A DNA stretch of 37,632 nucleotides from Planctomycetota bacterium (GTDB lineage: Bacteria; Planctomycetota; GCA-002687715; DRQF01), in assembly GCA_027001995.1 (NCBI GenBank), contig JALTLO010000134.1, forward strand, positions 6,005 to 43,636, in the 5' to 3' direction. The notes beneath the pieces were generated by a model, which worked only from the letters and a program-made list of their open reading frames with translations, searched no databases and had not been told where the DNA came from. Every line of letters starts with the position of its first letter. Position 1 is the first letter of the stretch. Shown in pieces: positions 31,960-34,032 of this stretch. The position numbers and the translations under genes are program-made.

Positions 31960-34032
31960 TCACATTGCGAAAGTTCCCGAATATGAAGGATCGCCGGAGA
32001 TTCGAATCTTTCGGTAGGGAGCTATGGATTCCTTTGCTTGAATTTGATCTGGGAACGAATGGGGAGCGTAGGTGACAGGACATCTGCTTTCTTGACTCGG
32101 CACCAAACCCCGAGGAGTGACGTCGATGAGATCAAGTCGAAGCAAGTCCGGTTGAATGGTTGACCGTAAGACATCTCTGTCAAGGCCCATGAGGGCCGCC
32201 AACTTGGCTTGGCCTGTGGGTAATCTGCTTGCTCCAAGAATCTCCAAGGCTTGCTTGTGGCGAGGGCCCAAGCCGAGACTGTCCAAACGCTTGCGACGAA
32301 GAGTCTCTTCAACCAAAGCTATGGTTATCGTGTTCTCGCCCTTGGCCAAACGTAAATCGCCTGCAGAAGCAAGAAGAGCCAGAGATTTCCTGGGGGTGCC
32401 CATAGAAGCCCGGGCAATCGCTTGGCAGGCCTCTTTTGCAATTTCTACTTGGGAAGCTTGGCGCACAATCTGGGCCAGATCGCTGTCTTCGTAGGCCAGA
32501 AGTTCTTCCTGCAAAACGAATCGATCCAAAAGTGGCTTGGGCATGAGATTGGGATGTGTGGTGGCCCCCACCACACAGATCTCCCCTTGGTCCATCATCT
32601 CATAGAATATTTCCGCTACCTGCTGGGGTAACCCGTGGATCTCATCGATCAAGAGAACTGAACCTTCTGGCACAAGCAGCTCGTCAATGGAAGATACAGC
32701 GGGCCCCGTCCTTGCCACAAAAGGTGCCCCACTCTCCACAGCCAAAGCTCTTGCCAAGGAGGTCTTTCCTAAGCCTGGAGGCCCCTGCAACAACACATGA
32801 CGTGGTGCCCGATTCTCTCTTTGAGCCGCCAAACAGACGATCCTCAAGCTTTCCCGCACCTCGTCTTGGCCCACCAAGTCATCTAACTTCTTCCCCTGGG
32901 CTGGGGTGGCCGAAAGGGGCCCACGTGGGCCAACTTTGGCGGATTCCATGTGAATTTTCGGTCCGACATGAAGCCTTTCGCCCTCCAAAGATCGTCCAGA
33001 ACGATCAGTGACCACCAAGTCAAAAGGAGCAACGCCAGATATTTTGAGGAAACCATCATGGATCATTCCGTGACAATGGGCGCAGACGCTAGTCAAATTC
33101 CCGAGATCATGACTCCCACCATTTTCTCGAAAGATGATGTGGTGGACGTGAAGATTACTGCTTCCTTGGCAGTGAACACAGCGGTGACCATCCCGTGCCA
33201 AAACCCGACGCCTGATGCGGGGTGGTGTTGGTGAAGAGTTCTTTGCCCCAACGACTTCACCATCGCAGCGAACTATCTCGCTTTCCTCTTGAGTCAAAAC
33301 GATTGGCCCATCTTCTGTTGCCAAGTGAGACTGCTTGCATTCTGCGCAATGGCTCACGTTCACTTGAAAAAATGAAGCGCCGTTTGCTTTCTTTTCATTC
33401 CCTCCTTGCTCAACTTGTCGCAAGTAATTCTCGGCCAAGAATTGCAGGAATTCACCATCACCCAAATCACCGCCAGATTCCTCATGAAGTTTCTTGCGAG
33501 CTTGCTCCAAGAATTCATGAGCCAAAGGCGCGAGCTTGGCAGAGAACTTGAACTTAACCGTGGGCACACCTTTGCCATCTTCTCTGGGTGGCCTTCCTGC
33601 TTCTGATCCCCGAACTTCCAGGTCTAAACGCTCGCAAGAGACCACGGCAGCCCTCTCCAACCAAGCCTTTTCGTTTTCTGGCGTGGCAATCTTCACCAAC
33701 AAGCGTACTTTCGACCAAGAAATATTGCTTTGGCAAAACGCTTCATCAATAAGAGGTAGTTCTTGCAAGGCTGCACCCACGGTGATCAAAGTGCGGGCCA
33801 GTCTTCTGCTCATCTCCAATCGCTGCCGAGCAAATTGAACAGCACTGACAAAGCCAAGGGCTTGGTGAAGACCACGGCTTTGCATGTCATGAAGATAAAA
33901 AGCCAAAGCACGACGGGCCACATCACTGCTGCGATTGTGCAACAAAAGAGTTCCTTCCAACTCCTGGGCATCAAGGCCAAAACGTAGATGAACGGCTGGG
34001 ATTTCATCTTGATATTTGGGGACAATACTCAT
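31960..34032 (-). CDS. DUF222-like + HNH endonuclease + RuvB-like helicase fusion protein
   Basis: N-terminal LPLIDEAF...ISWSKVRLLVKIATPENEKAWL; HNH VLARDGHRCVHC...VHH...GG....NLTSVCAHCHGMIH; RuvB LDDLVGQ, HVLLQGPPGLGKTSLA, IDEIH, GATT, PLLDRF, GTPR and winged-helix TPRG. Confidence 0.9.
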   Translation of the reverse strand: MSIVPKYQDEIPAVHLRFGLDAQELEGTLLLHNRSSDVARRALAFYLHDMQSRGLHQALGFVSAVQFARQRLEMSRRLARTLITVGAALQELPLIDEAFCQSNISWSKVRLLVKIATPENEKAWLERAAVVSCERLDLEVRGSEAGRPPREDGKGVPTVKFKFSAKLAPLAHEFLEQARKKLHEESGGDLGDGEFLQFLAENYLRQVEQGGNEKKANGASFFQVNVSHCAECKQSHLATEDGPIVLTQEESEIVRCDGEVVGAKNSSPTPPRIRRRVLARDGHRCVHCQGSSNLHVHHIIFRENGGSHDLGNLTSVCAHCHGMIHDGFLKISGVAPFDLVVTDRSGRSLEGERLHVGPKIHMESAKVGPRGPLSATPAQGKKLDDLVGQDEVRESLRIVCLAAQRENRAPRHVLLQGPPGLGKTSLARALAVESGAPFVARTGPAVSSIDELLVPEGSVLLIDEIHGLPQQVAEIFYEMMDQGEICVVGATTHPNLMPKPLLDRFVLQEELLAYEDSDLAQIVRQASQVEIAKEACQAIARASMGTPRKSLALLASAGDLRLAKGENTITIALVEETLRRKRLDSLGLGPRHKQALEILGASRLPTGQAKLAALMGLDRDVLRSTIQPDLLRLDLIDVTPRGLVPSQESRCPVTYAPHSFPDQIQAKESIAPYRKIRISGDPSYSGTFAM

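Follow-up and report, generated by a model that had tools for sequence, protein, structure and literature searches.

A RuvB-derived ATPase fused to a DUF222-like HNH nuclease in Planctomycetota: a candidate damage-induced relative of the 13E12 repeats

The window analyzed here is a stretch of 37,632 nucleotides from a planctomycete genome. It carries on its reverse strand a gene whose domains and flanking features are listed in Table 1. Pfam placed an HNH domain at residues 285-326 of the product (E 5e-8), RuvB_N at 381-485 (E 8e-26), the RuvB lid at 514-584, and the RuvB winged helix at 586-643. All top PDB matches, by sequence and by fold, were RuvB; the fold match to 1hqc had a Z score of 27.6 and an rmsd of 2.5 over 276 aligned residues, and searches with the whole model were filled by AAA+ chains. 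These data confirm the original prediction that one 690-aa ORF combines a DUF222-like region, a zinc-binding HNH domain, and RuvB, and the Walker A and B, GATT, DRF, GTPR, and TPRG motifs it had named were all found. Its statement that the window lacks ruvA and ruvC also held: neither occurs among the 24 window ORFs scanned, and both are present elsewhere in the genome.

Table 1. Features of the fusion gene and its upstream region, in window coordinates
Feature	Residues	Position	Strand	Basis or remark
DUF222-like/HNH/RuvB fusion gene	690 aa	31960..34032	-	single ORF
DUF222-like helical domain	14-208	33409..33993	-	long N-terminal helix; HTH-like pair at aa 64-91
Variable linker with CxxC...C	209-265	33238..33408	-	partly conserved
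Zinc-binding HNH nuclease	266-345	32998..33237	-	Pfam and conserved residues
RuvB-derived AAA+ core	379-513	32494..32898	-	Pfam, PDB alignment
Scar of presensor-1 hairpin deletion	~481-488	32569..32592	-	alignment
AAA+ lid with sensor-2 arginine	514-584	32281..32493	-	Pfam
RuvB winged-helix domain, charge remodelled	585-645	32098..32280	-	Pfam
C-terminal tail, poorly conserved, low confidence		31963..32097	-	inter-copy homology fades here
PafBC-type promoter motif TG[AT]CCC-N10-TAnnnT		34070..34091	-	37 nt 5' of ATG; near 5' end of inter-copy homology
Faint, decaying upstream similarity among genome copies		34092..34155	-	by eye, approximate; 5' end not sharp here

An AlphaFold model built on a 58-row alignment had a mean pLDDT of 84 but a pTM of 0.53, so the individual domains are modelled with confidence and their relative placement is not. 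Prediction of a three-copy complex of the RuvB module scored 0.12, and the N-terminal half folded as a single sequence reached a pLDDT of 35.

Elsewhere in the window we noted an IS-like repeat distinct from the fusion, about 885 bp long (30805-31690), with copies on other contigs. It contains a 17-bp tandem duplication (31025-31058) that its other copies lack, and its ORF had no Pfam, PHROG, or PADLOC match. An AAA ATPase gene at 25784-28537, matching phrog_8638 (E 7e-140), adjoins a DUF3150 gene in what looks like the remnant of an integrative or phage-like module, and a DDE transposase (DDE_Tnp_1_4) lies at 19961-21346.

An assembly artefact was excluded, as two further copies in the genome, and unrelated proteins by the dozen, preserve the reading frame across the fusion junction. 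The gene is not covered end to end by any contig derived from reads, and a database neighbor with 97% identity looks mosaic; the phasing of this copy among its paralogs is thus provisional, whereas the architecture is not in doubt.

The DUF222 profile matched the fusion protein at E 0.041 with 13.6 bits, below the Pfam cut-off of 24.4, and gave E values of 0.5 or less for 8 of the 32 family members compared. A PDB profile search with the N-terminal domain gave no match. By hhalign, the domain aligned with a DUF222-positive protein over 90 columns (probability 97%, E 1e-10), and its top Atlas cluster was 15% DUF222, with an Atlas value of 0.97. Together, these comparisons indicate that the N-terminal domain is homologous, though remotely, to DUF222.

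A search with the N-terminal 260 residues returned 3680 clusters at E ≤ 0.001, 150 of them among the matches listed. Our family sample comprised 175 proteins with an N-domain match, taken from the matches listed, a homologue search, and four loci: 71 had the N-domain, HNH, and RuvB, 51 the N-domain and HNH, 49 the N-domain only, and 4 the N-domain and RuvB. Many of the short proteins are probably fragments. Sixty members with a near-complete RuvB were kept for comparison, after two that lacked the Walker A pattern, one of them a hairpin-less relative, had been dropped. Homologues with source-given names came from Planctomycetota. Against the NCBIfam RuvB models the window protein scored below the cut-offs (177 bits versus 282 for NF000868; 160 versus 299 for TIGR00635), and three distant members pass NF000868. 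Some fusions exceed the NCBIfam RuvB cut-off and many carry the plain name RuvB in the source databases, which hides them there (noted at P0043, P0171, and P0108).

The fused RuvB domains fell on one side of a branch from 51 canonical proteins (SH-aLRT 99, in a quick tree with long branches). In a tree of the N-domain plus HNH, all 41 fused rows belonged to one 97% group together with seven RuvB-less rows, one of which is a broken fusion. This topology fits a single capture of RuvB with later losses.

The HNH domain had been described as intact and the ATPase motifs as present, and the family bears this out. The HNH and zinc residues C285, C288, H297, H298, C317, H321, and H325 were present in 58 of 58 fused proteins and N312 in 57; the linker cysteines were less constant (C229 in 24 of 58, C256 in 45). 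The Walker A lysine, the Walker B aspartate and glutamate, the sensor-1 threonine, the arginine finger, and the sensor-2 arginine were found in 59 of 59. Values of dN/dS were 0.03-0.3 across the folded domains, including 0.05-0.08 for the DUF222-like domain, and higher in linkers and tail, with several comparisons saturated or short. The invariant residues and dN/dS reveal purifying selection and exclude a decaying passenger RuvB.

We then compared the RuvB module with canonical proteins, using as controls the output of a genome-contig scan that returned canonical RuvBs alone. The span from the MED position to GATT is 6 residues in the window protein and 26 in 89 of 90 canonical RuvBs, a 20-residue deletion; the PDB alignment revealed a further 6-residue deletion N-terminal to Walker B. 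The predicted loss of the presensor-1 hairpin is therefore correct for this protein but fails as a family signature: a short span (≤14 residues) occurs in 17 of 60 fused members, and the other 43 keep an insert of 25-32 residues. The acidic residue at the canonical hairpin tip is gone from all 60. On the family tree, nine changes are needed to explain hairpin loss, four of them forced by starred branches, and the AU test rejected a single origin (p 1.3e-5), indicating that the hairpin was lost several times independently. Domain III of RuvA is described as binding the presensor-1 hairpin and helix 3 of RuvB (PMC9477746), and such repeated loss suggests that the family does not need RuvA. RuvA independence, as first proposed for the window protein, is thus likely for the fused family. 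The host genome has one canonical ruvB, with ruvA and ruvC, on other contigs, so that the separate ruvAB looked for in the original prediction exists, and ruvA is also found in five of five other carriers. These intact host genes exclude a replacement of RuvABC by the fusion.

A different picture emerged for the residues that hold DNA. In Thermus thermophilus RuvB, R101, R147, R297, R300, and R302 are assigned a role in gripping DNA (PMC10272136); the numbering was transferred via the PDB alignment. Four or five of these positions are basic in 89 of 90 canonical RuvBs, whereas at most two are basic in 55 of 59 fused proteins. The window protein has one of five, and its clade has none or one. 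The equivalents of R101, R147, and R297 are basic in 90, 89, and 89 of the 90 canonical proteins and in at most 5, 1, and 3 of the 59 fused ones, the R147 equivalent being acidic in 41. Equivalents of R21, E127, E128, and D129, described as the nucleotide-gating residues of RuvB (PMC9477746), are also eroded, as are many residues of the inter-subunit salt bridges. The mean net charge of the winged helix changes from -2.2 in canonical to +3.9 in fused proteins through basic residues gained on helices and acidic residues lost.

These data bear on the proposal that the protein works without RuvA as a dsDNA translocase or branch-migration motor, bringing its own nuclease and using the DUF222-like domain as an anchor in place of RuvA. 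The whole RuvB fold is kept, the ATPase core is invariant, and the hairpin is dispensable; the threonine and glycine of the wing persist, the last wing arginine is retained in 44 of 59 fused proteins, and the new basic residues of the winged helix could substitute for the lost ones. The loss of most grip arginines and the erosion of the gating set argue the other way, and in the clade of the window protein the last wing arginine is missing too. A single grip residue beside invariant ATPase and HNH residues makes translocation doubtful, which weakens this part of the original prediction, and we regard it as unlikely. From the conserved trans-acting arginine finger we infer an active oligomeric ATPase with changed DNA binding, a loader more than a pump.

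Alternatively, the RuvB module could join host RuvB rings at Holliday junctions and so bring the HNH domain to recombination intermediates. Retention of the cis- and trans-catalytic residues with loss of the RuvA and DNA contacts is the pattern expected of such a passenger, for which host subunits would supply both the RuvA contact and the DNA grip, and co-induction with host ruvB is predicted from the promoters described below. The eroded salt-bridge residues and the long branches are hard to reconcile with staying compatible with host RuvB, and we consider this reading very improbable.

Next, we examined the copies in the genome. Five distinct 5' ends (on contigs C134, C41, C39, C28, and C199) and five 3' ends (C134, C41, C63, C193, and C54) indicate at least five copies of the fusion; one copy, on C199, is broken, and a fragment lies on C141. 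As is usual for repeats, several copies run out where their contigs end, and read-derived contigs from other copies, of a run that is probably the one behind the assembly, leave the window at 34095 and 34099. Copies lie among unrelated genes in the host genome and in two congeners, as do the four copies of another metagenome. At the sites checked, the three congeneric genomes have different neighbors. The sites beside a CoA-transferase gene and beside hemE have no copy in the one congener that was checkable for each.

In three pairs of paralogs, homology starts at or just before the promoter motif and ends near the stop codon, and homology from the promoter to about the stop was seen in several lineages. 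This 5' boundary may reflect selection instead of an element end. In the tree of the N-domain plus HNH, copies from one genome tend to cluster together, and a 5'-to-3' gradient of divergence between two copies suggests gene conversion or a mixed assembly. No terminal inverted repeats or target duplications were found at the copies. Comparison with genomes about 65-80% alike in DNA yielded no exact empty site, and contigs from four runs gave no joint across the gene. The closest pair from different genomes has 92% identity and shares a downstream gene, so it is probably orthologous, and one subfamily common to the congeners indicates that some copies are old. Together, the data support spread within genomes, and the multicopy, dispersed, and patchy occurrence fits the mobile element that the original prediction had offered as one option. 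We found no fusion on phages, viruses, or plasmids; one plasmid match to the N-domain plus HNH part had 26% identity.

With RuvB-less relatives counted, a query with the N-domain plus HNH had matches in 36 of the 401 Planctomycetota genomes sampled, often several per genome; the 18 genomes with a verified fused copy come from five families. The RuvB-less relatives themselves exist in multiple copies, several pairs of which are 85-93% identical in DNA (L354-L373; genomes G113, G107, G284, and G100), and some copies have long repetitive flanks, making them better material for finding element ends.

The copies in the genome share the sequence TG[AT]CCC-N10-TAnnnT shortly 5' of the ATG, which the original prediction had not mentioned. 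Reading it as a standard promoter with a -35 box failed, the spacer being 11, and this failure led us to PafBC. The mycobacterial PafBC motif is given as tGTCgg(N10)tA(N3)T with a 22-nt geometry (PMC8635444, PMC8151990). Planctomycete and mycobacterial systems have this geometry in common, as well as a tandem pafB-pafC pair and the motif 5' of recA and lexA (PMC8635444); the planctomycete motif differs in its upstream element, TG[AT]CCC, and its control by PafBC is predicted from sequence. A tandem pair of WYL proteins on contig C188 of this genome (G000, 13778-15870; L274) matched PafB (E 2e-28) and PafC (E 8e-16) in the PDB, and NCBIfam gave no match to either protein.

A first, loose motif scan gave no more than a weak genome-wide excess (64 versus 36-57); the excess emerges only close to gene starts. 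The strict motif with spacer 10 is a pattern that was fixed after the regions ranked by the matrix described below had been viewed, and hence is not blind. It was found close to 29 of the 4066 gene starts, or 25 once the element itself is left out, compared with 3-12 at nine other spacers. It precedes recA, lexA, ruvB, dnaE, dnaN, an addB-like gene, and an sbcD-like gene, 7 of 25 against 2 of 32 controls (Fisher p 0.03), the controls being 31 scanned genes and, as the 32nd, dnaN, which turns up again at spacer 11. With one mismatch, the motif also occurs at ssb and ruvA, and none was seen at ruvC. When a matrix derived from the eight element promoters alone was used to rank 4066 genes, the sbcD-like gene, dnaN, lexA, ruvB, and the addB-like gene came within the first 15 that do not belong to the element. 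The strict motif is present at 16 of the 38 fused loci taken across lineages, several with an exact TGTCGG; other spacers gave 0-3 and shuffling gave a mean of 0.18. The remaining 22 loci lack the strict motif, with near-matches or, in one lineage, a -35/-10 promoter seen among them. By hand count, pafB occurs in 105 of the 401 genomes of Planctomycetota, and 17 of the 18 genomes whose fused copy was verified have it; this association is not independent, as the 18 belong to five families. The motif and the pafBC pair suggest a sigma-adaptation damage regulon outside Actinomycetota.

At the lexA promoter (G000:C86, upstream of 935), the PafBC-type motif overlaps CTGT-N8-ACAG. The latter resembles the SOS box of E. 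coli. Promoters of other lineages contain direct repeats, some with an 11-base period, of a TTAGG type and a GAAC-N7-GAAC type (L134-L137, L191, L359-L363, L345, L350, and L240), which are possibly LexA-like operators.

A promoter held in common with recA, lexA, ruvB, dnaE, and dnaN would also suit a domesticated repair enzyme, part of the PafBC regulon and structure-specific in its cutting of stalled forks or junctions, with the extra copies as ordinary duplications. Co-occurrence with pafB and the low dN/dS of the folded domains speak for it, and strong purifying selection with membership in a repair regulon fits a host enzyme equally well. Most of the pafB-positive genomes searched nevertheless have no fusion, conserved neighbors are lacking, copies are broken or expanded within genomes, and host RuvABC is complete, all of which makes such an enzyme improbable.

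The motif also lies near a ThsB TIR gene, cas3, and a C5 DNA methylase gene (L282, L290, and L295; G000 contigs C84, C121, and C149), hinting at damage-linked defence genes. ATPase and HNH domains are a common pairing in defence systems. The fusion might act in defence or suicide as a nuclease triggered by damage or phage: single-stranded DNA would signal through PafBC, and invading or host DNA would then be destroyed by the ATPase-nuclease. Two or three copies do lie, by eye, near restriction-like or mobile genes. PADLOC returned short generic ATPase or HNH matches alone and no full-length system protein, and most copies sit among ordinary genes with no partner gene, which, with the lack of fusions on phages and plasmids, argues against it. 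Also in its favor, an induced HNH nuclease is reported to kill Mycobacterium smegmatis (PMC9416677), a link to the present family that is one of analogy. Neighborhoods and PADLOC thus lent no positive support to the defence or restriction role offered in the original prediction, and we consider that role quite unlikely.

The closest known system is 13E12/REP13E12 of M. tuberculosis and other Actinomycetota (DUF222, PF02720, plus HNH). The 13E12 genes of M. tuberculosis are described as damage-induced insertion elements with LexA sites and a RecA_NDp promoter (PMC3381160), and the repeats as gene-conversion hotspots (PMC13061034). The planctomycete proteins have in common with them a homologous N-domain and HNH in one gene, dispersed multicopy occurrence, no transposase, the RecA_NDp/PafBC class of promoter (PMC3381160), and signs of gene conversion (PMC13061034). 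They differ in the C-terminal RuvB, in belonging to Planctomycetota, in a DUF222 score below the cut-off, and in having no SOS box at the copies in the host genome and no phage attachment that we saw. By these comparisons the fusion behaves like 13E12 and is homologous to it, yet it is not a strict member, given the sub-cut-off DUF222 score and the added RuvB.

With canonical RuvB (PDB entries 1hqc, 8efv, and 7pbl) the module of the window protein has in common the three-domain fold, Walker A and B, sensor 1, the arginine finger, and sensor 2. It differs in being fused to a nuclease, in the loss of the hairpin, the LRP arginine, the MED signature, and four of five grip arginines, in a winged helix that is basic rather than acidic, and in its separate branch from the 51 canonical proteins and its coexistence with host ruvB.

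In mobile units served by the transposon target ATPases IstB, TnsC, and MuB, an AAA+ switch accompanies the enzyme that cuts DNA. By analogy, the fusion may work in a comparable way, differing in that it has no DDE transposase, no terminal repeats, and a RuvB-derived ATPase fused to the nuclease.

Taking the observed architecture, its conservation, the dispersal of the copies, the motif, and the presence of pafBC together, we favor, at somewhat less than even confidence, a self-amplifying element, induced by damage and related to the 13E12/DUF222-HNH repeats, in which the RuvB module has become an ATP-switched oligomeric DNA loader for the nuclease. A one-gene selfish element, kin of these repeats, would have taken up ruvB once. 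To judge from the motif and the host genes, DNA damage would act through host PafBC to switch the element on along with recA, lexA, and ruvB. The RuvB-derived module would then bind and hydrolyze ATP as a RuvA-free oligomer, as its invariant residues suggest. Pumping through the pore would be gone; the charge remodelling points to an ATP-switched clamp or loader that binds DNA by its winged helix and the DUF222-like helices and, in the manner of the transposon target ATPases, clusters several HNH domains. In the last and weakest step, nicks or breaks made by HNH during induced host recombination would lead to copying of the promoter-to-stop unit elsewhere on the chromosome, and the copies would be homogenized by gene conversion. 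The fuller proposal, that this is a transposase-less element within a PafBC response outside Actinomycetota, in which the captured RuvB provides ATP-driven targeting and HNH copies the promoter-to-stop unit via host recombination, is more tentative, and we hold it as possible but doubtful.

A search of openly available full texts listed no paper on a DUF222-like/HNH/RuvB fusion, and titles and abstracts of the matching literature did not describe a PafBC regulon in Planctomycetota, to which the family points. The family also offers a natural experiment on RuvB, in which the residues for ATP hydrolysis are kept and those for RuvA coupling and DNA pumping are lost. The 13E12/DUF222-HNH repeats have been known for decades as damage-induced recombination hotspots and are still described as having no defined function (PMC13061034). 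The RuvB-fused branch provides a handle on them, as its ATPase and nuclease can be inactivated separately and its shared boundaries define a unit for mobility assays. If the favored reading is true, this element would be the first of the 13E12 type to contain machinery of its own that reveals how such repeats move.
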